DNA of 64,000 nt from Pseudomonas sp. (GTDB lineage Bacteria > Pseudomonadota > Gammaproteobacteria > Pseudomonadales > Pseudomonadaceae): assembly GCF_028293835.1 (NCBI RefSeq), contig NZ_JAQGNX010000179.1:49169-113168 (forward strand), in the 5' to 3' direction. Both the position numbers and the translations under genes were made by a program. A model generated the notes under the pieces. The model saw only the letters and a list, made by a program, of their open reading frames with translations. It did not search any database and was not told the DNA's origin. Positions 28,116 through 42,599 of this stretch are shown piece by piece. Positions within the stretch are counted from its first letter, which is position 1, and each line of letters starts with the position of its first letter.

Positions 28116-28488
28116 ATGAATTTCAGGAAGGCTCTGCTCTGTAAAGCTTTGGCATCACCGACAGTCGGGTATTGGCGGACGTCACGAGCCCGTTGTTAAA
28201 AAGCGACGAGGTTTTGCTGGATGTACATGCGGCAGGCGCAGGCATGTCAGAAAGGGTAATTGGGTCATGGTCCTGACGGACTGGGGCGGTTTGCCGGCCG
28301 GGACTCTCAACGCGCTGAGAGTTGATGGTGCTCAAACCATCAGCAGAAGTTTGCCCGTGGTCGCCCGACTCTCCAAATCCGAATGCATGGAGCATTTGCC
28401 GATCCGATTTCCGGTGGTCGCGGACGTGTTCGCGAATGAAGCGATGCGGTACCCAGACAAACCGCAAATGAGTGGCAAAGAAGGTTGA
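28116..28488 (+). pseudogene. Eroded MDR-family NADPH:quinone oxidoreductase remnant
   Basis: Successive frames give KALLCK / FGITDSRVLADVTSPLLKSDEVLLDVHAAG / KGNWVMVLTDWGG / EAMRYPDKPQMSGK, colinear with the MDR pattern MKAxLCKxFG...DEVLLDVHAAG...GDRVMALTGWG...GK; frameshifts and large deletions. Confidence 0.7.
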
Positions 28489-28552
28489 GTCGTAGTTCTT
28501 AAACGCTACTGTTGACTCGCTCGGTCGCGACACGCTCTGGATGTTTTGCAAG

Positions 28553-29710
28553 TCACCTTTTCGGCGTCAGCCGAATAAGCCGTGCCTTACCCGCGTCTTC
28601 AATGAGCCAAAGGGCTCCATCCGGCGCGAGAGCGACATCGCGGATACGCTGCCCCATGTCCCAGCGATCTGCTTCACGTGCGTTTCCATTGGCGTCGATA
28701 ACCACACGCACAAGTGCTTGTGATCGTAAGCTGCCGATAAACGCTGAACCTTTCCAGTCGGGAAAGAGTTTCCCGGTATAAAAGGTCAAACCTGCAGGTG
28801 CTATCACAGGTGTCCAATAAAGGACCGGAGGTTCAAATTCAGGGTGCGTGTCGTGGCGTGGGATTGGCGTGCCGTCATAGTTGTCGCCATTTGATACGAC
28901 TGGCCAACCATAATTACGGCCAGGCTTCAGAAGATTGAGTTCATCTCCTCCCATTGGTCCCATTTCATCCAACCAAAGCTTTCCGTCCGGGGCGAACGCC
29001 AGTCCATAGGGATTGCGGTGTCCTGTCGTCCATGTTTGGGCTCTTACTCCGCCTTGACTCGCCATCGGATTGTCGTTGGGCGTCGTGCCATCGAGATTAA
29101 GCCGAAGTACCTTGCCGAGAGCCTGATCAGGATCCTGTGCGGTCTCGGGGCGCATTCTGTCTCCTGAGGTGAGAAACAGATGCTTACCGTCTGGCGAAAA
29201 AGCAACAATGCCCCCCGGTTGGCCACCGTGGCCTTTGGGCATCTGCCGCCAAATGACGTGCAGATTGCCAAGCGTCAGGTGGTTTTCAGTTCCGCTCAGT
29301 TGAGCGCGTGCCAATGCCAGACTGCTGCCGTTTGGACCGGGTTCGGAGTAGGTCAGGTAGATCGAATGATCACGGTCAAAGTGAGGCGAGATGGCGACGT
29401 CAAGCAAACCGTTTTGTCCGCTGTATTCGACTTTAGGCACACCGCCGATCTGCTGTTTGTTGCCGTCCTGAGTCACCAGAAACAGGCGGCCGGCCTTTTC
29501 GGTAACCAGCATTCTGCCGTCCTGGAAAAAAGCGAGCGCCCACGGAACGTCGAACGTGGTTACTGTGGTTTCCTGAAATGGCTTTGAGGGATTTGGTGTA
29601 TTTAAACCTGCATTCACCTGCGCAGTTGCAGGCAGCACGATGCCGAGGCTCAGGAAAACGGCTAGAGCCAGTGCAGATATTCGGCGACTAAGAAAAAAGG
29701 GCGAACGCAT
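28553..29710 (-). CDS. PQQ-dependent sugar dehydrogenase (YliI/sorbosone dehydrogenase-like)
   Basis: Signal peptide; PWALAF, GLLDVAISPHF, GKVLRLNLDG, TGHRNPYGLAF, GDELN, NYGWP. Confidence 0.88.
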   Translation of the reverse strand: MRSPFFLSRRISALALAVFLSLGIVLPATAQVNAGLNTPNPSKPFQETTVTTFDVPWALAFFQDGRMLVTEKAGRLFLVTQDGNKQQIGGVPKVEYSGQNGLLDVAISPHFDRDHSIYLTYSEPGPNGSSLALARAQLSGTENHLTLGNLHVIWRQMPKGHGGQPGGIVAFSPDGKHLFLTSGDRMRPETAQDPDQALGKVLRLNLDGTTPNDNPMASQGGVRAQTWTTGHRNPYGLAFAPDGKLWLDEMGPMGGDELNLLKPGRNYGWPVVSNGDNYDGTPIPRHDTHPEFEPPVLYWTPVIAPAGLTFYTGKLFPDWKGSAFIGSLRSQALVRVVIDANGNAREADRWDMGQRIRDVALAPDGALWLIEDAGKARLIRLTPKR

Positions 29711-29975
29711 GGTAATCCCCACGCTATTTAGGTTTTCCTATCATGCTGTCCATGCCCTTACATTGGCCAGCGCAAAATTACTGTACAGCCCGTACGTCAT
29801 AAATCCTGTAGCACTCCAGCCAGGTGTTCCGATTCTCACTCCTGAAATTGCTCCGGGTAAGGAATACCTCGGTTTTTTTATCGACGTGGAGTTGCGGGAT
29901 ACGTCACCTCGGGAGCCTATTGCCCCTCCGGTAGTGCTGCATCGCAACCAGCCACTTGAGGGAGAAAATTCGAAC

Positions 29976-31112
29976 TCAAGGGATTTTCATTGACCTGCTC
30001 ATCCAGGGCTTGCTCCTGCCGCAGCTTGAGTCAGCCGTATGCTGGCCCAGTTCTGGCGTGGTGAAGTCAGGCCGGCTGGGGTCACGCAGGAAGCGGATCG
30101 GGCTGTGCAGGTGCTTGCCGCCTTCGGTATCGGTGCCAATCAGGCCGCGACTGGCAGTATGTGGATGGGCCAGGGCTTCAGCGTAGTTGAGCACGGGGGC
30201 GACGCCGCCTGCCAGTCCCAACCGATGCATCCAATCGGCCAGCGACGCCTCGGCAAAAATCGACGTCAGCGTGGCGGATAACGCAGCCTGTGCTGGTGGA
30301 TCGGCGTCGAGCGCGCCAGGTAGCAGGTCCGGCCGCGACAAGGCTTCCAGTAATGTTGTGGCGGCGCGACGGTCGCGAGCATCCACACGCAGCCAGCGAC
30401 CTTCAGCGGTACGGTAGCTGGCGTTCAATGCATAAACGGCTGGGCCGGCGAAGTGGCTCGGCGTTTCCAGCGTGGCCAGCGCCGCTGCGGTAGCGCCGCC
30501 GCGCACGGCCAGTGCGGCATCATGCATGGAGATGTCGATATGATCGCCGCCCTGGCCGGCGCGTGCCGCGAGCAGCGCCATAAGGGTCGCCGACAGCGCG
30601 AAGTGTGCGGCAGCAACGCCGGCCAGGGACACGGTTGGTTCCACCGGCCGCCCATCGGCGTCGATCGCGAGCGCGCCGGCCAGTGCTTGCACCATCGTGT
30701 CGTGGGCGGCGACGTCTTTCAGCAGGCCGATTTGCCCGAATGCCGAAATCGAGCAGTAGACAATGTTCGGGTTGAGGGCGTTGGCATCGGCGTAGCCAAT
30801 GCCCAGCCGGTCGGCCACGCCGGGACGGAAGGATTCAAGCACCACATCGGCATCGCGGATCAAGGCGCGTGCGGTTTCTAGATGGGTGGGTTCTTTGAGA
30901 TCGAGGACGAGGCTGTGCTTGCCTCGATTGAGCACGCGAAAAGTGTCACCGTCGTTTTGGCCGGCAAGGCTACGTGGGCCCTGTCGAGTGGGGTCGCCTT
31001 GGGGGGGCTCGACTTTGATGACGTTGGCGCCGTGGTCGGCCATGATCGCCGAGACCATCGGTCCGGTCATGAACTGAGTAAAATCCAGGACAGTGATGCC
31101 GGTGAGTTTCAT
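29976..31112 (-). CDS. Family III (CaiB/BaiF) CoA-transferase
   Basis: VLDFTQFMTGP, VIKVEPPQGD, NRGKHSLVLDLK, SFRPGV, AHD (putative catalytic Asp). Confidence 0.85.
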   Translation of the reverse strand: MKLTGITVLDFTQFMTGPMVSAIMADHGANVIKVEPPQGDPTRQGPRSLAGQNDGDTFRVLNRGKHSLVLDLKEPTHLETARALIRDADVVLESFRPGVADRLGIGYADANALNPNIVYCSISAFGQIGLLKDVAAHDTMVQALAGALAIDADGRPVEPTVSLAGVAAAHFALSATLMALLAARAGQGGDHIDISMHDAALAVRGGATAAALATLETPSHFAGPAVYALNASYRTAEGRWLRVDARDRRAATTLLEALSRPDLLPGALDADPPAQAALSATLTSIFAEASLADWMHRLGLAGGVAPVLNYAEALAHPHTASRGLIGTDTEGGKHLHSPIRFLRDPSRPDFTTPELGQHTADSSCGRSKPWMSRSMKIP

Positions 31113-31258: not shown

Positions 31259-32107
31259 TTAATGCCCGGTGAAGTTTGGCTTGCGCTTCTCTAAAAACGA
31301 TTTCACACCTTCGGTAGAATCGCTTGAGCCAACGAGCGAGGACTGAGCCAGACGCTCGAACACGCGTCCGGTTTCGGTGTCCATGTTCTGGCAGGCATTG
31401 GTGACGTGCTTGCCGATACCCACTGCCAGCGGCGCTCCCTTCATCAGCAGGCGCGCGTAGTCCATTACGTCGTTCATCAACTGGTCAGGCTCGCTGACTT
31501 TGCGCACGAAGCGCATGTCGCGGATTTCCTGGGCATCGACGGTGCGCCCGGTCATTACTAGATCCTTGACGTTCTCGATGCCGATCATCTGAATCATGCG
31601 CGAGCAGGCACCGGATGCCGGGATTACGCCGATGAAGATTTCCGGCAGCAGGAAGGTGGCGGTGCTAGAGGCGAAGCGGAAGTCGCAGGACGCTGCCAGC
31701 TCGATGCCACCGCCAGCGCAGATCCCGTTGACCGCAGCGATGACCGGCTTTTCGATGGACTCCAAGTCATTGAGCATGTCGTGGTTGGCGCGCACATAAG
31801 CGCGGTACTGTGGCAGCGGCATGCCGCGCTCGCCACGCAGTTCCTCGACGTCGCGACCGGCACAGAAGCCACGGCCAGTACCGGTGATCACGATCACTCG
31901 CACGCTGTCGTCGAAGCTCATTCGCCACATCGCGGCACGGATCTCACCGATCATTTCGGTGTTGAACGCGTTGAGCTTCTGTGGCCGATTCAGCGTAATG
32001 AGCGCCACGCCGTCTTCGGGCATGGTGATGTCCAGGGTCTTGAATCCATCAGGCTCAACCATGTATCCACGTGGCCCTTTCTTGTTATCGGGTATCCACT
32101 GCTGCAT
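31259..32107 (-). CDS. Enoyl-CoA hydratase/isomerase
   Basis: ITLNRPQKLNA, FCAGRD, CAGGGIELAASCD, LPEIFIG. Confidence 0.9.
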   Translation of the reverse strand: MQQWIPDNKKGPRGYMVEPDGFKTLDITMPEDGVALITLNRPQKLNAFNTEMIGEIRAAMWRMSFDDSVRVIVITGTGRGFCAGRDVEELRGERGMPLPQYRAYVRANHDMLNDLESIEKPVIAAVNGICAGGGIELAASCDFRFASSTATFLLPEIFIGVIPASGACSRMIQMIGIENVKDLVMTGRTVDAQEIRDMRFVRKVSEPDQLMNDVMDYARLLMKGAPLAVGIGKHVTNACQNMDTETGRVFERLAQSSLVGSSDSTEGVKSFLEKRKPNFTGH

Positions 32108-32173: not shown

Positions 32174-33760
32174 TCAGGCCGTAGCCGGGGCGAAGCGTTT
32201 GCGCAGTTCGCGCTTGAGAATCTTGCCTGCGGCGTTCATCGGGAAGCTGTCGATGAACTTGATCGCTTTAGGTGTTTTGTAGCTGGCCAGGCGTAGGCGT
32301 GCGAAGCCGATCAGTTCAGCCTCGGCGACGGTGGCGCCGTCGCGCAGGACCACGGCGGCGGTAACCGCTTCACCCCAATCGTCGTCGGGCAGGCCGAAGA
32401 CAGCGGCGAACTCAACTGCGGGGTGTTCTATCAGCACTGATTCCACTTCAGCGGAGGAGACGTTCATTCCCCCCGTGATCACCATGTCCTTGACCCGGTC
32501 GATCACGTGCAACAGGCCTTCCTCATCGATAAAACCGACGTCGCCGGTGTAGACCCACTCCCCGCGCAAGGTGTGTGCGGTTTCTTCTGGCAGGTTGTGA
32601 TAACCGGCAAAATTGCTGGGCGAACGCACGCTGATTTCACCCGCCTCGCCGGTCGGTAGCGGGGTGCCGTCTTGCAGGCTACGGATGACCAGTTCGGCGT
32701 ACTTGGCCGGTCGACCTGCAGTGCGCAGCCGTTCGTCAAGGCCATCGCCGGCGGTACTGCCACGGGGATGGTCTTCGGGTTTCAGATACGACACCAACCC
32801 GCCCATCTCGCCGCCGCCGAAGCCCTGATAGAAATCCCACGGCAGCAATGCCAACGCTTTGCGGATCATCGCTGCCGGCATTGGCGAGCCGGTGTAACCG
32901 AACAGCTTCAGCGAACTTATGTCGTATTTGGCTGGATCGTATTCCTCGCACATCCTGCTGAGCATGGTCGGCACGCCACACGCATGACCCACACCGTGTT
33001 CTGCAATAGCCTGCAAGGCATCGGCGGGCTTGAACGTTTCCGGTACGACATTGGCCACGCCATGATAGGCGGCGGCAAACGCCATCCAGATGCCAGCACC
33101 GGAAAAGAGCGGCAGCAGTTGCAGAAACGGAGCGTCAGTGGGTACGTCGAGTTCGCGGAAAAAGTTCTCGATACTCGACAGAATCTGTCGATGTGTTCCC
33201 AGGCAGCCTTTCGGTGCGGCGGTGGTGCCGCTGGTGTAGCGGATGGTGCGGATATCGTCGGGCGAGACTGCTGCCTCATCGAACGCTACGGCGGCAGTCT
33301 TGATTGCATCGTAATCATGCCAGCCGCTGTTCAACGTCGCGCCGCCATGCACGACAACGATGGCACCGGCCTGTTCGATCTGGGCACGGAAGGGCTCGAC
33401 GAAATCGGCATCGGTCAGGATTGCCTTCGGTTCGGAGTCCTGAAAGATCACCTCAACCTCTGCAGCGGTCAGGCCGTAGTTGATTGGCACGCCTACAAAC
33501 CCCGCACGGGCAAGGGCAAACAGCGCTTCGATTGCGTCTGGGCCGTTGCGCACGATGGTTGCGATGCGGTCGCCTCGTGTCAGGCCAAGGCTGGTCAATC
33601 CACCGGCCAGCGCGAGGGTGTGGGTGTCCAGTTCAGCCCAGGTATGGGTGAGTCCCTGTGGTCCGATCAAGGCCGGTGCAAGCGGTCTGGAGGCGACGTT
33701 GTGGGCCAACAGGTCACCTATCCGCAGCCTGCGGTTGTTATTGCTGGGATCAATAGACAT
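32174..33760 (-). CDS. Acyl-CoA synthetase (AMP-binding)
   Basis: YTSGTTAAPKG, GFGGGE, YTGDVG, DRVKDMVITGGMNV, AGKILKR. Confidence 0.9.
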   Translation of the reverse strand: MSIDPSNNNRRLRIGDLLAHNVASRPLAPALIGPQGLTHTWAELDTHTLALAGGLTSLGLTRGDRIATIVRNGPDAIEALFALARAGFVGVPINYGLTAAEVEVIFQDSEPKAILTDADFVEPFRAQIEQAGAIVVVHGGATLNSGWHDYDAIKTAAVAFDEAAVSPDDIRTIRYTSGTTAAPKGCLGTHRQILSSIENFFRELDVPTDAPFLQLLPLFSGAGIWMAFAAAYHGVANVVPETFKPADALQAIAEHGVGHACGVPTMLSRMCEEYDPAKYDISSLKLFGYTGSPMPAAMIRKALALLPWDFYQGFGGGEMGGLVSYLKPEDHPRGSTAGDGLDERLRTAGRPAKYAELVIRSLQDGTPLPTGEAGEISVRSPSNFAGYHNLPEETAHTLRGEWVYTGDVGFIDEEGLLHVIDRVKDMVITGGMNVSSAEVESVLIEHPAVEFAAVFGLPDDDWGEAVTAAVVLRDGATVAEAELIGFARLRLASYKTPKAIKFIDSFPMNAAGKILKRELRKRFAPATA

Positions 33761-33908: not shown

Positions 33909-35108
33909 TCAGTCCAGTAGCAGTCCCTTGCGGCGACTCCAGTCGATCACGGTGTCGATACAACGCGCCAGCAGTTCCGGCTGGCCCAAATAGTAATGGG
34001 TGGCGCCATGCAGGCTGACGAATTCCTTATCCGGCGTGGCCAATGCGGCATGGATCAACGGATTGTGCGTAGCCGGTACGGCATCGTCGGCCTGGTTTTC
34101 GATTTGCAGCACCGGTGTGGTGTGGATGCGCGCGGCGTTGGCCGGACCCTTGGCGTTGGACAGGTCATAGGACCATTGCGACAGCCACGAGCGCAGCGTA
34201 GAGAAGCGCGCGAGTCCTACTGGACCGACGTTTACCGTGCGCGGATTCCCCATGTAACACCAGTCCGGCTTACGTCCGCTCGGGTCGATACTCGGGTCCA
34301 GCCAACGTACATCGCACATGGTGCGGTGGGTGACGAAAGCCCGCTCGACTTCACCGTCGCTGCGGGTGCGCAGTTTTTCCAGCAGTTCCTGGGCCCATGC
34401 GGTGATACGACGGTTGCGCGCGCGCTGTTCCTCACGGAAGGCCAGCACGAAGTCGGCGGAGAACGGCGCCTGGTTGGGGCAGCGCGGATCGTAAATATCA
34501 AATTCGCGGTTGCGCTGGTCCGGGTCCAGTTCGTTGACGACTGATGGGTCCAGCCATTCAGTCAACGTTTCGGCGCGGCTTAGGTGAGCGGCAATGAACA
34601 CCACGCCATCGGCGCGACTGAGTTTGGCTGCGGTCAGGTCGTAAGGGTCGCCGGCCGGAGTATGGGTGATCGTCGGGTTCTCGGCCTGAGCCTGATAGAA
34701 GAGCGACAGCGAACCACCGCCGGACCATCCCACCAGAACCACCTTTTCATAACCCAGCACTTCACGGGCGTGACGGATATAGGCACCCAGGTCGTAGACG
34801 ACCTTCTCCATGATCAGCGCGCTGTCGTTACGCGCATAACGGCTGCCGGCGCATAACACGTGCATGCCGGCTTCGGCCATTGCCGCAGGCATTGGCAGCA
34901 GTTGCAGCGTCGAGGTCGGGTGCATGAACAGGAACACCGTGTTCGACGGTCGCCCGCGAGGCACCAGGCGTTGGCCTTCCAGGGACGTGATGCCCTGGCT
35001 GCCGTTGAAGCCATAGGTTTCGGTCAGCGCCAGGGATTCGGAAAACTGCAGCACGACCGGGATACGGTCCCATTCGGCTTTGGTAAAAGTAGTCAATGTG
35101 GTTTCCAT
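33909..35108 (-). CDS. Alpha/beta hydrolase of an uncharacterised family
   Basis: GWSGGG nucleophile elbow, ADDAV and ATHYY candidate Asp/His; ATG 35108 overlaps the VOC stop. Confidence 0.8.
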   Translation of the reverse strand: METTLTTFTKAEWDRIPVVLQFSESLALTETYGFNGSQGITSLEGQRLVPRGRPSNTVFLFMHPTSTLQLLPMPAAMAEAGMHVLCAGSRYARNDSALIMEKVVYDLGAYIRHAREVLGYEKVVLVGWSGGGSLSLFYQAQAENPTITHTPAGDPYDLTAAKLSRADGVVFIAAHLSRAETLTEWLDPSVVNELDPDQRNREFDIYDPRCPNQAPFSADFVLAFREEQRARNRRITAWAQELLEKLRTRSDGEVERAFVTHRTMCDVRWLDPSIDPSGRKPDWCYMGNPRTVNVGPVGLARFSTLRSWLSQWSYDLSNAKGPANAARIHTTPVLQIENQADDAVPATHNPLIHAALATPDKEFVSLHGATHYYLGQPELLARCIDTVIDWSRRKGLLLD

Positions 35109-35632
35109 CAAACGGTGACTCCGGTCAGTTGGTGCTTGCGCCGCGTCCACTCGGCCAAGGCGGCGTGCGCCTCGCGTTCGGCCTCCTCAATGAAACCGGG
35201 CGCTTCGGTGCGTGTGGTGATCTCCAGGCGCAGGCCGTTGGGATCGAAAAAATAAATTGATTTGATGAAGTCATGGTCGACGATACCGCGCACTTCCACG
35301 CCAGCGGCCTCCAGGCGCGCTTTGTGTGCAAGGACCTGGTCGATACTCCCCACCTCCATTGCGAAGTGCTGGACCCAGTCGGGGGTGTTGGGCGAGGGCA
35401 ATGGTGCTTCGTTATTACCCAAATCGAAAAAGGCGATGTAGGAGTTGTCGCCCATGCGAAAGAACACATGGGCATACGGGCCTTTGCTGCCAGAGCTGGG
35501 CACCGCGTCGGCGGTCATGCAATGCACCAGCGGCAGACCCAGCAGATCTTCGTAAAACGCGCGAGTTTGCTCGGCGTCCCGGCAGGGGAAGGCGAAATGG
35601 TAGAGACCATTCACAGCGGATGGAACGGGCAT
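35108..35632 (-). CDS. VOC/glyoxalase superfamily protein
   Basis: LYHFAFPCRD...FYEDLLGL, QHFAMEV, SIYFFDPNGLRLEI. Confidence 0.88.
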   Translation of the reverse strand: MPVPSAVNGLYHFAFPCRDAEQTRAFYEDLLGLPLVHCMTADAVPSSGSKGPYAHVFFRMGDNSYIAFFDLGNNEAPLPSPNTPDWVQHFAMEVGSIDQVLAHKARLEAAGVEVRGIVDHDFIKSIYFFDPNGLRLEITTRTEAPGFIEEAEREAHAALAEWTRRKHQLTGVTV

Positions 35633-35718: not shown

Positions 35719-36933
35719 TCATGTCAGCTCTGCCTCTAGCGGAACGCGTGTGGCGTCGTAGCGGAACAACCAGTCGTAGCGCTCTTCGACACGACGCTCC
35801 TGCCACTCGGTCGTTACGTAGATTTCAGCTTCTTCGGCGTTGGAAAGCACGTTGCTGTGGAAGCGTCGGCCGTTCTCCGCCGAGCCATGCACTACGCGGC
35901 TGGTGCGTTCTATGCGGGCGGCTTCATAGCGTCTGAGCGCGGTGGGCACGTTATCGGCGTAGGTTTCCAGGCAGCGCGCAAGCACGTAGCCGTCCTCGAT
36001 TGCCATGCCCGCCCCCTGAGCCAGGAACGGCAGGGTCGGATGGCAGGCGTCGCCCAATAGAGTGGCGCGTCCGATCGACCAACGCTGCATGGGTTCACGG
36101 CCCAGCAGTGCCCATTTGTATGGCGAATCCAGTTTGCTGATCATGCTTTGCACGTCTTCGTGCCAGCCAGCGAAGTCAGCGGCGCATTCTTTTGCCGAAC
36201 CGCGCTCGGTCCACGATTCCACTTTCCAGTCACTGCGCTCGACGACTGCCACAAAGTTAAAAATCTCTCCGCGACGCAGGAAATAGTGAACGATATGGCC
36301 ACCGGGGCCGACCCAGTTAGTCCCGACCGGATTGAGCAGATGCTCGGGCAGCTCTCGTGCCGGAACCAGTCCACGCCACGCCACGCAGCCGGTAAAGACC
36401 GGGACACTGGCGCCAAATAGGGCCTGACGCAATGCTGAATGCACGCCATCCGCGCCGACCAGCGCATCGCCCTGGGCGCTACTGCCGTCGGCGAAGCGCA
36501 GCGTCGCGCAATGCTCGTCCTGTTCGCAGCCTACCGCGCGTTTGCCCAAATGGATTGCATCGGGCTTCAGCGCGCGTATTGCGTCAACCAGAATCTGATG
36601 GATGTCGGCGCGATGGATCATGAAATAAGGAAAGCCGTAGCGCTCGACTGAGGTTTCGCCCAAGTCAAACAGTTTCCAGGTCTGTCCGGTGTTCCACAGC
36701 CGTACTTCCTTACCCGACGGAATCGAGTAGACCTCACGCAGTTTTGGCTCCAGGCCCAACGCGAACAATACCCGCGCACCATTGGCGCCGATCTGGAAGC
36801 CTGCGCCGATCTCGCCCAGTTCGGTGGATTGTTCGTAAACGTCCACATCAATTCCGCGCTGGAGAAGGCTGAGCGCAGCAGTCAGGCCGCCGATGCCGCC
36901 GCCGGCGATGAGTACGTGCAAGGGTTTCGCCAT
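35719..36933 (-). CDS. Group A FAD-dependent monooxygenase (salicylate / 3-hydroxybenzoate hydroxylase-like)
   Basis: IAGGGIGG, EIGAGFQ, VGADGVHS, LLGDACHPTLPFLAQGAGMAIEDG. Confidence 0.9.
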   Translation of the reverse strand: MAKPLHVLIAGGGIGGLTAALSLLQRGIDVDVYEQSTELGEIGAGFQIGANGARVLFALGLEPKLREVYSIPSGKEVRLWNTGQTWKLFDLGETSVERYGFPYFMIHRADIHQILVDAIRALKPDAIHLGKRAVGCEQDEHCATLRFADGSSAQGDALVGADGVHSALRQALFGASVPVFTGCVAWRGLVPARELPEHLLNPVGTNWVGPGGHIVHYFLRRGEIFNFVAVVERSDWKVESWTERGSAKECAADFAGWHEDVQSMISKLDSPYKWALLGREPMQRWSIGRATLLGDACHPTLPFLAQGAGMAIEDGYVLARCLETYADNVPTALRRYEAARIERTSRVVHGSAENGRRFHSNVLSNAEEAEIYVTTEWQERRVEERYDWLFRYDATRVPLEAELT

Positions 36934-37016: not shown

Positions 37017-37045
37017 TTTCTAAATAGTTGACTTAAGTTTGTCAA
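37017..37045 (-). promoter_or_regulatory. Sigma70-like promoter for the monooxygenase operon
   Basis: Minus strand TTGACA (37045-37040), 17 nt, TAGAAA (37022-37017); overlaps a TTGAC-N8-GTCAA inverted repeat at 37028-37045. Confidence 0.5.
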
Positions 37046-37169
37046 TAACGAATTTGATTTTACGAAAATAAGACGGTTTTAGCGTCTGCTTGTTGTGTTG
37101 GATTTGCTTATTTCCGCTGACGAGGTATAGGTTTCGCTATTCAGAGCGCATCACCGGAAAGGAAAAACC

Positions 37170-38003
37170 ATGGCAAGAAAAATAAGTGCCCAGGACATTG
37201 TTCAGGAAGAAGAGGGCACACCGGCACGCGAGGATTCGCAACGGTCGATACAATCAGTGGAACTCGGCTTTCGTCTGATCCGTTGCCTGGAAGAGGCGTC
37301 GGGCCCGTTAACGCTGAAGGAGCTCTCGGCGCGCGCGAGCATGACTGCGAGCAAGGCGCACCTCTATCTGGTCAGTTTTCGTCGCGTCGGGCTGGTGCAG
37401 CAGGAGGCTGACTCTGGCCGCTACACGCTAGGGACGTATGCGTTACTCCTGGGTCTGTCGGCTCTGCGCAAGCTTGACGTAGCGCGACTGGCCCGCGAGC
37501 CGCTGCGGCAGTTGAGCGAGGAGACCGGTGAGAGTGCGTACCTGGCGGTCTGGGGCAATCGCGGCCCGTGCATTGTTTTGTGCGTCAACGGTCCACGACC
37601 GATGCCGATGTCGCTGCAGGTCGGTTACGTCCTACCGACGATCACCTCGGCAACCGGGCGTATCTTTTTTTCCTACCTGCCCCGCGCGGATACCGCCGAG
37701 ATCGTCAAGCTGGAGCAAGTCGAGTACCTGGCACGAGATGCCGATTACGGCGAGCCGGCACTGTTGCGTATTGCGGAGGAAACTCGCGCACGTTCGCTGT
37801 CGCGTACCGATAGTCTGCTCAACATTGGCTTCACTGCATTGTCGGCGCCGGTGTTCGCTTACGACGGCTCGCTGGCGGCCGCAATCACGGTGATCGGTCC
37901 AAGCTCAGGTATCGACGCTTCGCTGAGCGGGCGCGCGGCCAAGCGCCTGCTGGCCATTGCCCGGGGACTCAGCACGCAGATGGGTTGGAGTACCCCGGAG
38001 TGA
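37170..38003 (+). CDS. IclR family transcriptional regulator
   Basis: IQSVELGFRLI...TLKELS...SKAHLYL HTH; C-terminal SAPVFAYDGSLAAAITVIGP. Confidence 0.92.
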   Translation: MARKISAQDIVQEEEGTPAREDSQRSIQSVELGFRLIRCLEEASGPLTLKELSARASMTASKAHLYLVSFRRVGLVQQEADSGRYTLGTYALLLGLSALRKLDVARLAREPLRQLSEETGESAYLAVWGNRGPCIVLCVNGPRPMPMSLQVGYVLPTITSATGRIFFSYLPRADTAEIVKLEQVEYLARDADYGEPALLRIAEETRARSLSRTDSLLNIGFTALSAPVFAYDGSLAAAITVIGPSSGIDASLSGRAAKRLLAIARGLSTQMGWSTPE

Positions 38004-38021
38004 ATGTCAGCCCTAAGTCCA

Positions 38022-38065
38022 TTGACAAGGTTAAAAAATGAGGCTAAAAATTAAATCGAATTTAA
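38022..38065 (+). promoter_or_regulatory. Sigma70-like promoter with adjoining palindrome
   Basis: TTGACA (38022-27), 17 nt, TAAAAA (38045-50), then TTAAATCGAATTTAA (38051-65). Confidence 0.6.
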
Positions 38066-38112
38066 CAATAACAAAATAAGGCCGCCAAGCGGCCAGTTCC
38101 CTGGAGGAAGTA

Positions 38113-39654
38113 ATGGTCGCAGTTAGTGCTGCCCATGCGTGCAATGTCGAAGCCTACCGGCTTGGGCATTTCATTGATTCATTGGGTCCGGATGAGGTTG
38201 AAATCGTCGAGGAGCCGGTTGACCTGGCCGATATCGCGGCACGTCTGGAGGGTAATCCACGGGCCGTGCTGTTTCGCCAGGTCGGACCTGAGCGTGTGCC
38301 TCTGGTGGGTAACCTCACTGGCAGTCGGGCACGTCTGGCACGGGCATTCGATGTAGACCCGGCGCAGTTGCTGCCTGAGCTACTGAAGCGGCTGTCACGG
38401 CCGCCGCGGAGTGTCGAGCTGAGCCGCGAGGCAGCGCCCGTACAACAAGTGGTGCTGACAGGTGAAGACGCAGACTTCACTGCACTGCCAGTGCATTTGC
38501 AACACGGTCTGGATGGCGGTCCCTATCTTTCAGCTTCTATCGATTATGTACGGGATGCGCGTACCGGCCATACCAACGTGGGTGTGCGCCGGTTGATGCT
38601 GCGTGGTCGTCGCGAGGCGGGGATCGACCTGATTTCGCCCAGTGACCTGCGGGCCATTTATGAAGGTGCGTTGGCGCGCGGCGAACGCTTGCCGGTGAGT
38701 TTCGTGGTCGGTTGCCATCCGCTTGATCATGTTGCTGCGACGATGAGGCTGCCGGTCGATGAGCTTGGTCTGGTCGCTTCGCTGCGTAACGAGCCGCTGC
38801 CAGTTGTCAAGTGCATCACCAATGACATCATGGTGCCGGCCGACGCCGAATACGTGCTTGAAGGCTATCTGGACGAGCGTGGTTACAGCGAGGCAGAAGG
38901 TCCATACGGCGAGTTTCTTGGCTATTACGGCGGGGTCAAGCGCAACCCGGTATTTCATTTGACGGCCGTCACCCATCGCCGCGACCCGATATTCCAGACC
39001 ATGACTATCAGTGGTCCGACAATGGGCTACACGGACAGCTCGCCGCTGATCGCGTTGCGTACCGAGGCGATGCTGTGGCGCGCGCTGCAAGGGGCGGTGC
39101 GTGAGCCGGTCGCGGTCTATGCGACGGGGGCCAGCGGCGGCATGTTCAACGTGCGTATCGCGATTCGTCAGCGTGTGCCGGGCGAGGCACGCAATGCAAT
39201 TGCTGCGGCCTTCGCCAGCCTGGCCAACGTGAAGAACGTGTTCGTTGTCGATCCGGATGTGGATATCTTCTCCGATCAACAGATGGACTGGGCGCTGGCA
39301 ACGCGCTTCCAGGCCGCGCGTGATCTGGTGATTGCCGAGGGGATGCGCGCATTGCCGCTGGATCCTTCGTTGGGGCCGGATCGACTGGGATCCAAGGCAG
39401 GTTTCGACTTGACCTGGCCATTTGGTACCGGCAACGCATTTGATCGTCAGGTGCCGGCACCGCCGCGACATGACGGCGCGCGCTTCGATTCGGTCGAGGC
39501 GGCGCTTGAGCATGGGCCGAAATACTTCGTTGAGCTGATGGATGCTGTCGGTAGCCGCGACGGCCGGGAAATTGTCCGCACGCTTGAAGCGCTGCGCGCT
39601 AACCCGGGGCTGGAACGCGATAACGACGGTCGCTATCTGTTTTCAGATCGCTGA
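38113..39654 (+). CDS. UbiD family prFMN-dependent (de)carboxylase
   Basis: VLFRQV...LVGNL, DGGPYLS, NVGVRRLM, EGPYGEFLGYY, VFVVDPDVDIF, WALATRFQ; about 55-aa C-terminal extension; GGAGG RBS. Confidence 0.92.
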   Translation: MVAVSAAHACNVEAYRLGHFIDSLGPDEVEIVEEPVDLADIAARLEGNPRAVLFRQVGPERVPLVGNLTGSRARLARAFDVDPAQLLPELLKRLSRPPRSVELSREAAPVQQVVLTGEDADFTALPVHLQHGLDGGPYLSASIDYVRDARTGHTNVGVRRLMLRGRREAGIDLISPSDLRAIYEGALARGERLPVSFVVGCHPLDHVAATMRLPVDELGLVASLRNEPLPVVKCITNDIMVPADAEYVLEGYLDERGYSEAEGPYGEFLGYYGGVKRNPVFHLTAVTHRRDPIFQTMTISGPTMGYTDSSPLIALRTEAMLWRALQGAVREPVAVYATGASGGMFNVRIAIRQRVPGEARNAIAAAFASLANVKNVFVVDPDVDIFSDQQMDWALATRFQAARDLVIAEGMRALPLDPSLGPDRLGSKAGFDLTWPFGTGNAFDRQVPAPPRHDGARFDSVEAALEHGPKYFVELMDAVGSRDGREIVRTLEALRANPGLERDNDGRYLFSDR

Positions 39655-39793
39655 CGCCAGCCAGCAATGCCCGCCCAACAGCCATAGGCGCCTGTTGCAG
39701 GTTTTTAAAGGTGATCGAGCGACGGAATGAGTCCGTCTGTTCGTTCGTCCGCGGCGCGGTGCGCCGCTTTCAGTTAAACGGGATACTCATTTC

Positions 39794-40525
39794 ATGAAAG
39801 GTGAATTCATCGATCTGACCATGATCGACGGGCAAACCCTCCACGCCTATCGCGCGTTGCCCCCGTCGGGCCACGGTCCTGCGGTTGTGGTGTTGCAGGA
39901 GATTTTCGGGGTCAACGAGGCGATGCGCTCGGTGGCGGATGATCTGGCCGAGCAGGGCTATGTTGCGCTGGTACCGGATGTGTTCTGGCGTTTGCAACCA
40001 GGCGTGGAGCTTGGTTACGGCGAAGAAGACAGTCGCACGGCGTTCGGGTTGTGGCAGCGTTTCGACCTGGCCCAGGGTGTGGATGATGTGGTGAAAGTGA
40101 TTCAAGCCGTGCGCGCACGCGATGAGGTCCAAGGTGGGGTCGGGCTGCTCGGCTTTTGTTTGGGGGGCCAACTGACGGTCAAAGTCGCAGCGAAGGTCAA
40201 GGTGGACGCCGCGGTTTGTTTCTACGGCACCCGACTTGGGGATTCGCTGGAGGAGATTGCCGCCATTGATGCGCCGACGCTGTTCCATTTCGGCAGTGCC
40301 GATCCTCACGTACCGGCAGAAGTGCGTGAAGCTGTCTCCCGTGTCGCGCAGACACAGCCGCATATGCGGGTAAACGTATACCCGCAAGCGGTGCATGGTT
40401 TCTTCAATGCGTTCCGCGAATCTTCGTTCCATGTGGAAGCGCACCGGCAGGCATGGCTGGATAGTTTGAACTTGCTGCGCGAAGCGCTGTTCGATTTTCC
40501 GCAGACATCTGCTGTCGGCCACTAG
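39794..40525 (+). CDS. Dienelactone hydrolase family protein
   Basis: VLQEIFGVN, GFCLGG (Cys nucleophile), YPQAVHGF. Confidence 0.9.
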   Translation: MKGEFIDLTMIDGQTLHAYRALPPSGHGPAVVVLQEIFGVNEAMRSVADDLAEQGYVALVPDVFWRLQPGVELGYGEEDSRTAFGLWQRFDLAQGVDDVVKVIQAVRARDEVQGGVGLLGFCLGGQLTVKVAAKVKVDAAVCFYGTRLGDSLEEIAAIDAPTLFHFGSADPHVPAEVREAVSRVAQTQPHMRVNVYPQAVHGFFNAFRESSFHVEAHRQAWLDSLNLLREALFDFPQTSAVGH

Positions 40526-40590
40526 CCGGCTCCGTTTTCGCATACCTGACGACGAGCCTGTAAGGGCTGAATCAACAAAGGGTGAACGTC

Positions 40591-42030
40591 ATGCATACCA
40601 AGAACAAGAAAGTGCTGGATGTGACGAAATTGATTGAAGATCCGCGCATGGGAGCAAGGCGCTGGGGGTTGGTTGTTTTGTGTCTGATTGTCGTCATCTT
40701 TGACGGCTTTGATGCACAAGTCATCGGCTATGCCGCACCAGCGTTGATCCGTAGCTGGCATGTGGGCCGTGACGTGCTTGGGCCGGTTATCAGTGCCGGG
40801 CTGTTTGGCTTGATGCTGGGTGCGCTGGTATTGGGGACGTTAGGTGATCGCATCGGGCGCAAGTCGATCATATTGATTTCGGTAACGGTGTTTGGGATTG
40901 GCTCGTTGCTGACCGTGTTCGCCGAGAACGCCCAACAGATGATGATACTGCGCTTCCTTACAGGCATTGGCCTGGGTGGAGCAATGCCAGGTGCAATTGC
41001 GCTGGTGTCCGAATACGTACCCACTCGGCTACGTGTCAGCCTGGTGACAATAACCGTGTGTGGCTTTGCCATCGGCCCGGCGCTCGGCGGATTCGTTGCC
41101 GGGCCTCTGATTAATCTCTACGGGTGGCCGTCGCTCTTCGTGCTGGGCAGTGTCCTGCCATTGCTGCTGTTGCCGGTCTTGTGGCGGATGCTGCCGGAAT
41201 CCTCGCGTTTTCTGATTGCTCGTGGGGATTCGCCGGAAAAGATTACTCGTAACCTCCAGCGGCTGTTCCCGGAGCATCGGTTGTCTGCAGACGAGGAATA
41301 TGGACAGCCCGAAGGACGAGTGCCAAGGGCGTCGGTGCGTGAGGTTTTTGCCGAGGGCAGGGGGTTGGGCACGGTACTTCTTTGGAGCGCTATTTTCTTC
41401 AATCTGATTGGCATCAACCTGCAAACCAGCTGGCTGCCGACGATGATCAGTGAGCTTGGCTATCCCATCGAGCAGGCCGTCACCGCGACCGCAATGCTGC
41501 ATGTCGGCGGTGCGCTCGGTGGGCTGGTATTGAGTCGACTGCTTGACCGCGTCGATCCTTTGCGTGCGGTGGCAGTCATTGGCATGATTTCGGGCCTGTT
41601 TGTGATATTGATTGGCTTCAGCGGCGGGTCATTAATGATGCTGCGCTTTTCGATATTCTTCGCCGGCTTGTTCGTGGTGGGGGGGCAGTCGGCACTGAAT
41701 GCAATGAGCGGCATGTTCTACCCGAGCCACATTCGTTCGACCGGTGCCGGCTGGGCGCTGGGTATAGGGCGTCTGGGAGCCGCGGCAGGACCTATAGTCG
41801 GCTCTGCGCTTGCCGCCTTGCACATGGATATCCGCATGCTCTATTACGTGGAAGCTGTGCCGTTCTTTCTGATGGGCGCTGCGGTCTTCGGTATCGGCCT
41901 TACCCGTCGTCGGGGTCTGCGTTCCCAGGCCGTTGACACTGAAGAGGTCGGGTCAGCGTTACCGATGACGGCAATGGGAGGCTTTGCCGGGCGACCCGAT
42001 GCCGGCAGCGCAGCGGAAGAGCAGCGATGA
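40591..42030 (+). CDS. MFS aromatic acid:H+ symporter family transporter
   Basis: DGFDAQVIGYAAPAL, LGDRIGRK, RFLTGIGLGG, LPES, GRLGAAAGP. Confidence 0.9.
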   Translation: MHTKNKKVLDVTKLIEDPRMGARRWGLVVLCLIVVIFDGFDAQVIGYAAPALIRSWHVGRDVLGPVISAGLFGLMLGALVLGTLGDRIGRKSIILISVTVFGIGSLLTVFAENAQQMMILRFLTGIGLGGAMPGAIALVSEYVPTRLRVSLVTITVCGFAIGPALGGFVAGPLINLYGWPSLFVLGSVLPLLLLPVLWRMLPESSRFLIARGDSPEKITRNLQRLFPEHRLSADEEYGQPEGRVPRASVREVFAEGRGLGTVLLWSAIFFNLIGINLQTSWLPTMISELGYPIEQAVTATAMLHVGGALGGLVLSRLLDRVDPLRAVAVIGMISGLFVILIGFSGGSLMMLRFSIFFAGLFVVGGQSALNAMSGMFYPSHIRSTGAGWALGIGRLGAAAGPIVGSALAALHMDIRMLYYVEAVPFFLMGAAVFGIGLTRRRGLRSQAVDTEEVGSALPMTAMGGFAGRPDAGSAAEEQR

Positions 42031-42599
42031 GCGTTGCGCGACGTATGGTGGTCGGCATCTCCGGTGCCTCCGGGGCCATATACGGTGTGCGGGCACTGAT
42101 ATTGCTGCGCTATGCGGGGGTGGAAACACATCTGGTGATGAGTCGGGCTGCCAAGCTTACCCTGACCTATGAGACTGACATGAAGGTTGCCGAGGTGGAG
42201 GCGCTTGCTGATGTTGTGCATCGCGCCGACAACATCGGCGCTTCAATCTCCAGCGGCTCGTTCTCTAATCTGGGCATGCTGATTGCGCCTTGTTCGATCC
42301 GTACCTTGTCCGAGATCGCCAGTGGTGTAACCAGCAGCTTGATGTCGCGTGCCGCCGACGTCGCACTGAAGGAGCGTCGACGTGTGGTGCTGATGGTGCG
42401 TGAGGCGCCATTACATGCCGGACATCTGCGCAGCATGCTGGCGGTCACCGAGATGGGGGCGATAGTTTCGCCGCCGGTCCCGGCATTCTATGCACGTCCG
42501 ACTTCCATCGAAGCGTTGGTCGATCACAGCGTCGGGCGGGCACTGGACCTGTTTGGCCTGGACGTAGGTGTCGAGCAGCGTTGGGACGGGATCGGCTGA
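42027..42599 (+). CDS. ubiX: Flavin prenyltransferase UbiX
   Basis: VVGISGASG, APCSIRTL, RAADVALKERR, RE, PPVPAFY. Confidence 0.93.
   Translation: MSVARRMVVGISGASGAIYGVRALILLRYAGVETHLVMSRAAKLTLTYETDMKVAEVEALADVVHRADNIGASISSGSFSNLGMLIAPCSIRTLSEIASGVTSSLMSRAADVALKERRRVVLMVREAPLHAGHLRSMLAVTEMGAIVSPPVPAFYARPTSIEALVDHSVGRALDLFGLDVGVEQRWDGIG

Follow-up and report, generated by a model that had tools for sequence, protein, structure and literature searches.

What do a single-domain vicinal oxygen chelate (VOC) protein and an alpha/beta-fold serine hydrolase do together when their genes overlap behind a gene for a flavin hydroxylase? The question is raised by a 64,000-nt stretch of DNA from Pseudomonas sp. 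(the window, which here means the whole stretch analysed), in which both genes lie on the minus strand, as do the other genes of the module unless marked otherwise. The VOC gene (35108..35632, read from 35632 to 35108) has an ATG start and a TGA stop and encodes 174 aa, while the hydrolase gene (33909..35108, with its ATG at 35108-35106) encodes 399 aa. We report here that the VOC protein and the hydrolase form a unit, and propose that they would act in consecutive steps, the first opening the ring of a para-diol and the second hydrolysing the product.

The VOC and hydrolase genes form a conserved unit

An earlier reading, made from the letters of the DNA without database searches (the sequence-only reading), had picked out a TGATG stop/start overlap between the two genes. 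Direct inspection of the sequence places this overlap at 35106..35110, where the minus strand reads GTT-TGA-TGG, a single A serving both the stop TGA and the start ATG. A GGAG motif lies 10 nt 5' of the hydrolase ATG. A longer hydrolase ORF, beginning with a GTG at 35150 and encoding 413 aa, is also present in the sequence; since the homologues begin at or after the ATG in the alignment, the start was set at the ATG. Both the VOC and the hydrolase genes are single-copy in the source genome.

The sequence-only reading had further taken the pair for a conserved two-enzyme unit, and this is borne out by gene neighbourhood, by genome co-occurrence and by natural fusions. Related loci were scanned with a 10-row hydrolase alignment and their neighbours counted by tblastn in a set of 80 hydrolase loci, drawn from named genomes of Alpha-, Beta- and Gammaproteobacteria, Eremiobacterota and Actinomycetota; in 25 of these loci the flank on one or both sides is shorter than 4 kb. 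A VOC gene (at least 38% identity) was found within 8 kb of the hydrolase in 37 of the 80 loci, and directly upstream of it on the same strand in 21. In 23 loci an orthologue of the window monooxygenase (52-62% identity) is encoded no more than 3 kb from the hydrolase; one or other of the two partners is present in 50 loci, and an IclR homologue is nearby in 18. Sphingomonads with an IclR-monooxygenase-hydrolase arrangement and no adjacent VOC gene carry a strong VOC orthologue elsewhere in the genome (5/5 genomes), about 10-26 kb from the hydrolase in the three genomes in which the two could be placed on one contig.

The sphingomonad loci have a further peculiarity. In several of them (L017, L031, L035, L038, L041 and L045) the monooxygenase-hydrolase pair is flanked by genes for a GMC oxidoreductase, an aldehyde dehydrogenase, a LuxR-type regulator and an alcohol dehydrogenase of the pyrroloquinoline quinone (PQQ)/cytochrome c type, a hint that the route in these organisms receives its substrate from an aromatic alcohol or aldehyde.

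At the genome level, a sample of 400 Pseudomonadota genomes contained 9 (about 2%) with the hydrolase; eight of these are VOC-positive, compared with 47 of the remaining 391 (12%; Fisher p=6.5e-7, uncorrected for relatedness). The family also occurs in 22 of 301 sampled Actinomycetota genomes (7%). The co-occurrence counts include the unpublished genome G731 and the Actinomycetota tally includes the likewise unpublished G125, and the conclusions stand without both.

The two proteins are also found joined in one polypeptide. In natural fusions of 527-659 aa the hydrolase is the N-terminal part and is followed by a C-terminal VOC domain recognised by Pfam; these proteins form at least 13 clusters at 90% identity and come from ENA, JGI, NCBI and Logan. 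The fusion proteins P0130, P0138, P0152, P0185, P0396-P0407 and P0411 are metagenomic and from several sources. Over 388 residues, one of them, P0397 (646 aa, on 11 contigs), shares 45% identity with the window hydrolase. In the fusions the VOC domain is of the mycobacterial type (47% identity to the VOC protein of the Mycobacterium lacus locus described below), and the fusions therefore tie two lineages of the pair together. The neighbourhoods, the co-occurrence in genomes, the fusions and the persistence of the pair into the Actinomycetota show that the pairing of the VOC protein and the hydrolase is real.

The VOC protein is predicted to be a para-diol ring-cleaving dioxygenase

The VOC protein scores 56.7 bits against the Pfam Glyoxalase model PF00903 (cut-off 20.6; E 3.9e-15), which places it in the VOC superfamily, and no specific NCBIfam model comes near its cut-off. 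Its AlphaFold2 (AF2) model (pLDDT 94.1) has two beta-alpha-beta-beta-beta modules and a C-terminal helix. By sequence its sole close solved structure is PDB 9u42 (E=5e-33), and the folds match with a TM of 0.82.

The candidate metal ligands proposed from the letters alone, in the motifs YHF, AHV, QHF and RLE, are all present, and correspond to His12, His55, His89 and Glu137. Together with His120 and Tyr127, each of these residues is at least 90% conserved among 26 relatives. The stretch V118-D-H120-DFIKS-I-Y127-FF-D-P-N-G-LRL-E137 fits the PROSITE-type extradiol motif, which we take to be [GNTIV]-x-H-x(5,7)-[LIVMF]-Y-x(2)-[DENTA]-P-x-[GP]-x(2,3)-E, and the part of the protein that carries these residues aligns with residues 141-260 of BphC (1han), the span that holds the metal-ligand and second-shell residues of that enzyme. 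The window VOC thus carries the whole type I extradiol catalytic set, with His/His/Glu ligands and second-shell His, His and Tyr.

According to its citation in PMC13572102, the 'glyoxalase' of Acinetobacter whose structure is 9U42 (Seo et al. 2025, Proteins 93:2150) is a true homogentisate dioxygenase. It resembles the window VOC in being a single domain of about 175-180 aa with a C-terminal helix, and the His/His/Glu and second-shell His/His/Tyr positions are common to it and the relatives of the window VOC. Both types of gene follow that of an oxygenase that would make a para-diol, namely 4-hydroxyphenylpyruvate dioxygenase (HPPD) or a flavin hydroxylase, and are in turn followed by a hydrolase gene. 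They differ in the downstream partner, which is fumarylacetoacetase (FAH) in the 9U42 type and an alpha/beta hydrolase in the window.

Could the VOC protein nonetheless be something other than an oxygenase, such as a glyoxalase I-like isomerase, a CoA-ester epimerase or a thiol transferase, with the pair serving detoxification? Weak NCBIfam likenesses to FosA/FosK and YaeR-type proteins (E 1e-5 to 1e-9, far below the cut-offs) would agree with this, but we regard it as very improbable. The extradiol His/His/His/His/Tyr/Glu set is conserved, the nearest solved relative is reported, in the title of Seo et al. 2025 as given in PMC13572102, as a dioxygenase without glyoxalase I function, and operons of the HPPD-VOC-FAH type occur in genomes without HgmA, as shown in the next section. 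The glyoxalase I-like SMU1112c/YaeR model gives 34 bits against a cut-off of 140, the gene context is catabolic, and the protein groups with the VOC-type homogentisate dioxygenases. Judging from these comparisons the window VOC is not a glyoxalase; we predict that it is a metal-dependent dioxygenase that cleaves the ring of para-diols, and a paralogue of the VOC-type homogentisate 1,2-dioxygenases.

Two branches of VOC proteins with different partners

The VOC subfamily was found in 55 of the 400 sampled Pseudomonadota genomes (E<=1e-25). Among the 45 VOC loci that are not beside the hydrolase, HPPD adjoins the VOC gene in 17, FAH follows it directly in 7 (L150, L161, L163, L180, L188 and L189 among them) and a 535-aa flavin monooxygenase (MO535) is present in 10. 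In complete genomes with HPPD-VOC-FAH operons the cupin-type HgmA domain was absent (5/5), and a control search detected HgmA in Caulobacter. In many Pseudomonadota the position between hppD and fahA is occupied by a VOC protein of about 180 aa instead of homogentisate dioxygenase (L148:4971-6619; also L161, L163, L180, L188 and L189). This displacement is widespread and fits the published Acinetobacter enzyme. The HPPD and FAH neighbours and the absence of HgmA argue that the VOC family is, as far as gene content can tell, a genuine family of para-diol ring-cleaving dioxygenases.

In a quick maximum-likelihood search with IQ-TREE, the VOC proteins linked to HPPD, FAH or MO535 fall in one clade of 35 rows (99% SH-aLRT), which holds 17 of the 19 HPPD/FAH-linked rows and none of the hydrolase-linked ones. 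The window VOC lies outside this clade of VOC-type homogentisate 1,2-dioxygenases (9U42), in a separate clade of 13 rows (96% support), 12 of them hydrolase-linked, and is about 36-42% identical to the members of the HPPD/FAH-linked clade. No HPPD gene was found by tblastn in any of the 80 hydrolase loci, and there is none in the window locus. On this evidence the window VOC would be a paralogue, and not a member, of the VOC-type homogentisate dioxygenases, and because of the separate clade, the lack of HPPD and the alpha/beta hydrolase partner, its substrate is probably other than homogentisate.

The hydrolase belongs to a large family with an unmatched lid

The partner had been called an orphan hydrolase in the sequence-only reading. 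The term holds in so far as no Pfam or NCBIfam model reaches its cut-off for this protein (Pfam Abhydrolase_1 gives 19 bits against a cut-off of 25.8), a sequence search of the PDB gave only insignificant matches, and the protein atlas returned only clusters named 'putative alpha/beta hydrolase'. It does not hold as regards abundance, since the family has 7483 matches among the scored candidates and 224 clusters at 50% identity (E<=1e-30).

The motif GWSGGGSL...YQAQA, noted in the same reading, is present and holds the nucleophile Ser129. An alignment of 35 diverse members shows no change at Asp341 or His371 and hardly any at Ser129 (G127-W-S129-G-G), giving the G-x-S-x-G elbow, Asp and His in the canonical order of alpha/beta serine hydrolases; the alignment identifies Ser129-Asp341-His371 as the predicted triad. 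The same 35 members conserve a set of Arg and polar residues (Arg90, Arg178, Arg225, Gln228, Arg231, Arg279 and Asn293). The AF2 model (pLDDT 93.7) has a lid insertion at about residues 145-320. Searches with Foldseek and VIA-align matched only the core to solved structures (245-267 of 399 residues, Z up to 23.5), and found no solved structure that matches the lid (roughly 130 aa). The best matches (Z 21-23.5) are feruloyl- and PET-type esterases, GrgF, the thioesterase DcsB and dienelactone hydrolases. Because only the generic core is matched and the lid is not, the fold does not reveal the reaction.

The nature of these matches raises the question of whether the hydrolase is an esterase that acts upstream, freeing a phenolic acid from an ester, a depside or a polyester, so that its overlap with the VOC gene would be mere operon packing. 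The best fold matches include feruloyl esterases, PET46, chlorogenate esterase and similar enzymes, and the module contains a dienelactone hydrolase as a second hydrolase, a porin and a transporter, all of which would suit such a role. Nevertheless, the hydrolase has no N-terminal signal sequence obvious by eye, the conserved lid residues Arg90, Arg178, Arg225, Arg231, Arg279 and Gln228 would be better suited to a small, negatively charged substrate than to a bulky ester, a first-step esterase would not be expected to be fused to a dioxygenase, and the linkage is kept down to 36% identity in Mycobacterium. We therefore find an upstream esterase improbable.

A mycobacterial counterpart of the pair

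The sequence-only reading had likened the hydrolase to Rv0272c of Mycobacterium tuberculosis, near the VOC gene Rv0274. The likeness finds support in a Mycobacterium lacus hydrolase, WP_085159066.1 (376 aa), which aligns with the window protein over 318 residues at 36% identity (E=2e-57). Pfam assignments give the order of its locus as VOC(-), TetR(+), hydrolase(+), a fused 748-aa acyl-CoA dehydrogenase(+) and FadD(-), so that a homologue of the window hydrolase does lie between TetR/VOC and fadE6/fadD2-like genes. The M. tuberculosis layout, which we take to be Rv0274/Rv0273c/Rv0272c/fadE6/fadD2, is mirrored by this order, and the M. lacus protein looks like the counterpart of Rv0272c. The titles and abstracts of papers mentioning Rv0272c or Rv0274 give no function for them, and the one paper on Rv0274 presumes an aldehyde dehydrogenase family.

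The M. lacus hydrolase is of the same family as that of the window, with which it can be aligned around both the nucleophile Ser and the acid Asp. Its VOC protein has the same conserved residues and is encoded about 0.8-1 kb from the hydrolase, with FadD and acyl-CoA dehydrogenase alongside. Unlike the window genes, the two are divergent, with TetR between them and no overlap; the VOC protein has two insertions and only 26-34% identity to that of the window, and no flavin monooxygenase was found in the stretch examined. With hydrolases at 36% and VOC proteins at about 26-34% identity, the window pair is, by these figures, a paralogue of the mycobacterial pair and not its orthologue. The homology to the mycobacterial proteins, the conserved linkage and a VOC protein distinct from plain glyoxalase I were all found, and none of these checks refuted the idea of a two-enzyme unit.

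Large Actinomycetota genomes often carry two paralogues of the hydrolase. The first is 47-51% identical to the window hydrolase and is followed directly by a family III CoA-transferase; the second (35-37%) has VOC and FadD nearby. A 48%-identical paralogue is encoded in an operon of the actinomycetote G182 (L121:3539-10405) that runs from an ACAD-fold (acyl-CoA dehydrogenase-fold, group D-like) flavin monooxygenase through a 481-aa protein, an F420H2-dependent quinone reductase and a 367-aa protein to the hydrolase and a family III CoA-transferase. Neither the 481-aa nor the 367-aa protein has a Pfam match, and the operon may be a hydroquinone-type route that uses other oxygenases.

The monooxygenase and the CoA enzymes of the module

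The operon is led by a class A FAD monooxygenase (35719..36933, 404 aa; Pfam FAD_binding_3, 2.9e-21). It scores 318 bits against the NCBIfam model of 3-hydroxybenzoate 6-monooxygenase, below the cut-off of 459 bits, and its solved relatives are TrlE (8RQH, the best, at 1.9e-79), NicC, decarboxylative vanillate 1-hydroxylase, 4-hydroxybenzoate 1-hydroxylase and 3-hydroxybenzoate 6-hydroxylase (3HB6H). The chemistry of TrlE is described in PMC11110157. These relatives assign the window enzyme, on homology, to the group of para-/ipso-hydroxylases, whose members yield para-diols or their analogues, and it probably makes the para-diol that the VOC protein would cleave. A ring-cleavage step right after the hydroxylase, as the sequence-only reading expected at this position, is the reading of the two genes that the comparisons favour.

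The 7-hydroxycoumarin system HcdABC of Pseudomonas mandelii was also considered as a model and was rejected: it has a hydroxylase of 62 kDa, and neither the dioxygenase nor the hydrolase agrees in type or size with the window enzyme.

Directly 3' of the hydrolase lies the gene for an acyl-CoA ligase (32174..33760, 528 aa; Pfam AMP-binding, 2.8e-72), for which the nearest NCBIfam model, below its cut-off, is a long-chain-fatty-acid--CoA ligase subfamily, and which probably activates an acid product. It is followed by an enoyl-CoA hydratase (crotonase) family protein (31259..32107, 282 aa; Pfam ECH_1, 2.5e-56) and a family III CoA-transferase (29976..31112, 378 aa; Pfam CoA_transf_3, 8.6e-84). 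A ligase also directly follows the hydrolase in loci L080 and L081, with a gap of 3 nt in L081, and in L016 a crotonase orthologue (55% identity) has the hydrolase and UbiD as neighbours.

Between the CoA-transferase and the next crotonase are a soluble glucose/sorbosone dehydrogenase of the PQQ type (28553-29722; GSDH, 4.7e-123) and a 142-aa ORF without a family match (28123-28551). Since tblastn found neither in any of the 80 related loci, both are probably outside the module.

Upstream of the monooxygenase, an IclR-type regulator is divergently encoded on the plus strand (37170..38003; Pfam IclR_C and HTH_IclR) and probably regulates the module. Beyond it, also on the plus strand, a neighbouring operon (38113..42599, Pfam assignments) encodes a UbiD decarboxylase (38113-39654), a dienelactone hydrolase, a major facilitator superfamily (MFS) transporter and UbiX (42027-42599), and is closed by an OprB porin. 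This operon is probably part of the same pathway. UbiD orthologues (57-67% identity) are found beside the hydrolase in L016 (Eremiobacterota) and L043 (Hyphomicrobiales), and in Mesorhizobium-type loci (L034 and L050-L052) the gene between those for IclR and the hydrolase encodes a dienelactone hydrolase. The closest match of the window UbiD is the 2,5-furandicarboxylate decarboxylase HmfF (6h6v, 9e-65), with phthaloyl-CoA decarboxylase reaching only 4e-21, and the dienelactone hydrolase is nearest to ClcD (1din, 3e-40). The two enzymes suggest a carboxylated, perhaps lactone-forming, substrate.

The intergenic regions on either side of the IclR gene share a 24-nt direct repeat (37049-37072 and 38057-38080, 18/24 positions matching) and a 14-nt inverted match around TTGACA (37033-37046 and 38021-38034). 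Both are possible operator or promoter elements common to the two operons, which they would link, though the alignment is unconvincing.

The presence of these CoA enzymes and of UbiD opens another way of placing the hydrolase, as the thioesterase or lactonase in an aerobic 'hybrid' route that depends on CoA. An aromatic acid would first be converted to its CoA ester by the ligase or the transferase, possibly decarboxylated by UbiD and hydroxylated as the CoA ester, and the hydrolase would free the diol acid or open a lactone, before or after cleavage by the VOC protein. UbiD, UbiX and a family III CoA-transferase co-occur in the anaerobic phthalate route. The hydrolase adjoins either the ligase (window, L080 and L081) or a family III CoA-transferase (the Actinomycetota paralogue, L054), and its best fold matches include DcsB and the dienelactone hydrolases, as this route would lead one to expect. 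However, the fusion partner of the hydrolase is a VOC domain and not a ligase or transferase, UbiD is closer to HmfF than to phthaloyl-CoA decarboxylase, and the nearest relatives of the monooxygenase all use free acids. We consider this route unlikely, albeit a serious contender.

As to its origin, the hydrolase was found in one other of 24 genomes of the same genus, at 40% identity, and its nearest relatives (82-96% identity) include named records from Luteibacter and Caulobacter, so that the module looks laterally acquired.

A proposed para-diol cleavage pathway

In the pathway that we propose, the whole module would serve aerobic aromatic catabolism under the IclR regulator. The monooxygenase would convert a hydroxy-aromatic acid to a para-diol of the gentisate, homogentisate or substituted-hydroquinone type. 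The VOC protein, probably a homodimer, with His12, His89 and Glu137 as the ligands of one metal, would open the ring of this para-diol with O2, and the hydrolase, translated from the same message by way of the TGATG overlap, would hydrolyse the reactive maleyl-type 1,3-dicarbonyl ring-fission product. The hydrolase would thereby fill the role that FAH has after homogentisate dioxygenase. The released acids would be activated by the CoA ligase or the CoA-transferase and pass to the crotonase. We put this sequence of reactions forward tentatively, at a little short of an even chance.

The homologies, the residue sets, the linkage and the fusions are observed; the chemistry of the steps, the metal, the substrate and the order in which the two enzymes act are what we infer. 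That order is proposed because FAH follows the VOC gene in the homogentisate operons, and the window hydrolase occupies the same position, is coupled to the VOC gene and is elsewhere fused to it; the fusions and the deep conservation of the pairing underlie the idea of consecutive steps. The FAH and maleylpyruvate hydrolase step thus matches that of the window hydrolase in its place after a VOC-type dioxygenase, and would match it in its job, the hydrolysis of a 1,3-dicarbonyl ring-fission product; FAH itself has a metal-dependent fold unrelated to the serine hydrolase in structure or mechanism. Neighbours of other family members are related to quinones or hydroquinones, namely the F420H2 quinone reductase in G182 and a zinc-dependent alcohol dehydrogenase (Zn-ADH)-fold protein that follows the VOC-hydrolase pair in G539. 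In favour of a CoA step, a CoA ligase or CoA-transferase comes right after the hydrolase in the window, in L080 and L081 and at the Actinomycetota paralogue.

The classical systems HsaAB-HsaC-HsaD, MhpA-MhpB-MhpC and BphC-BphD share the operon logic of the window, with an oxygenase, VOC-type cleavage, a Ser-His-Asp hydrolase and delivery to CoA or central metabolism. Their dioxygenases have two domains and act on catechols, whereas the window VOC has one domain and is predicted to act on para-diols; their hydrolases are Abhydrolase_1 proteins of about 280 aa, whereas that of the window has 399 aa, an unmatched lid and a core nearer to esterases and dienelactone hydrolases.

Several observations weigh against the proposed pathway. 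The classical C-C hydrolases are outside the top fold matches of the hydrolase, whose core is nearest to the feruloyl and PET esterases, DcsB and the dienelactone hydrolases: HsaD ranks 41 in Foldseek and is absent from the 50 VIA-align rows listed. The hydrolase family is without a characterised member. Neither a VOC nor a monooxygenase gene lies within 8 kb in 30 of the 80 hydrolase loci, and it is this, together with the esterase-like core, that keeps both the CoA-dependent route and the upstream esterase alive. One hydrolase-positive genome (G716) has no VOC match at E<=1e-25, and the VOC protein is far commoner than the hydrolase (55 versus 9 of the 400 genomes), so that the dependence is one-way only. 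Short FAH-family genes are present in eight hydrolase loci, and the hydrolase therefore need not replace FAH everywhere. Moreover, the 9U42 crystal contains Zn, which may or may not be the working metal, and the pathway gives no part to UbiD/UbiX or the dienelactone hydrolase.

Implications for the hydrolase family

The operon logic of a hydroxylase, a VOC dioxygenase and a serine hydrolase is classical, and a VOC-type homogentisate dioxygenase has been published. We found no description of the hydrolase family as such, of its systematic association with a separate branch of single-domain VOC proteins, be it as neighbours or as fusions, or of the link to the mycobacterial locus of the Rv0272c type. 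A bolder extension, possible but rather doubtful, is that the hydrolase family, including the Rv0272c-type proteins of mycobacteria, is a new class of serine C-C hydrolases for the ring-fission products of para-diols, complexed with or fused to a single-domain VOC protein. It would be a widespread and so far unrecognised 'para-cleavage' counterpart of the classical dioxygenase/hydrolase pair of meta-cleavage, one that releases a fatty-acid-like side chain for beta-oxidation and bypasses maleyl-fumaryl isomerisation.

If the proposal is correct, a large and unnamed hydrolase family, the M. lacus protein included, would gain a testable function, and the VOC-type homogentisate dioxygenases would gain a second, hydrolase-coupled branch. 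The fusion proteins offer a one-polypeptide system in which both steps could be tested. The cleavage of hydroquinone-type rings is far less mapped than that of catechols, and a dedicated dioxygenase/hydrolase unit would fill a gap in its annotation.

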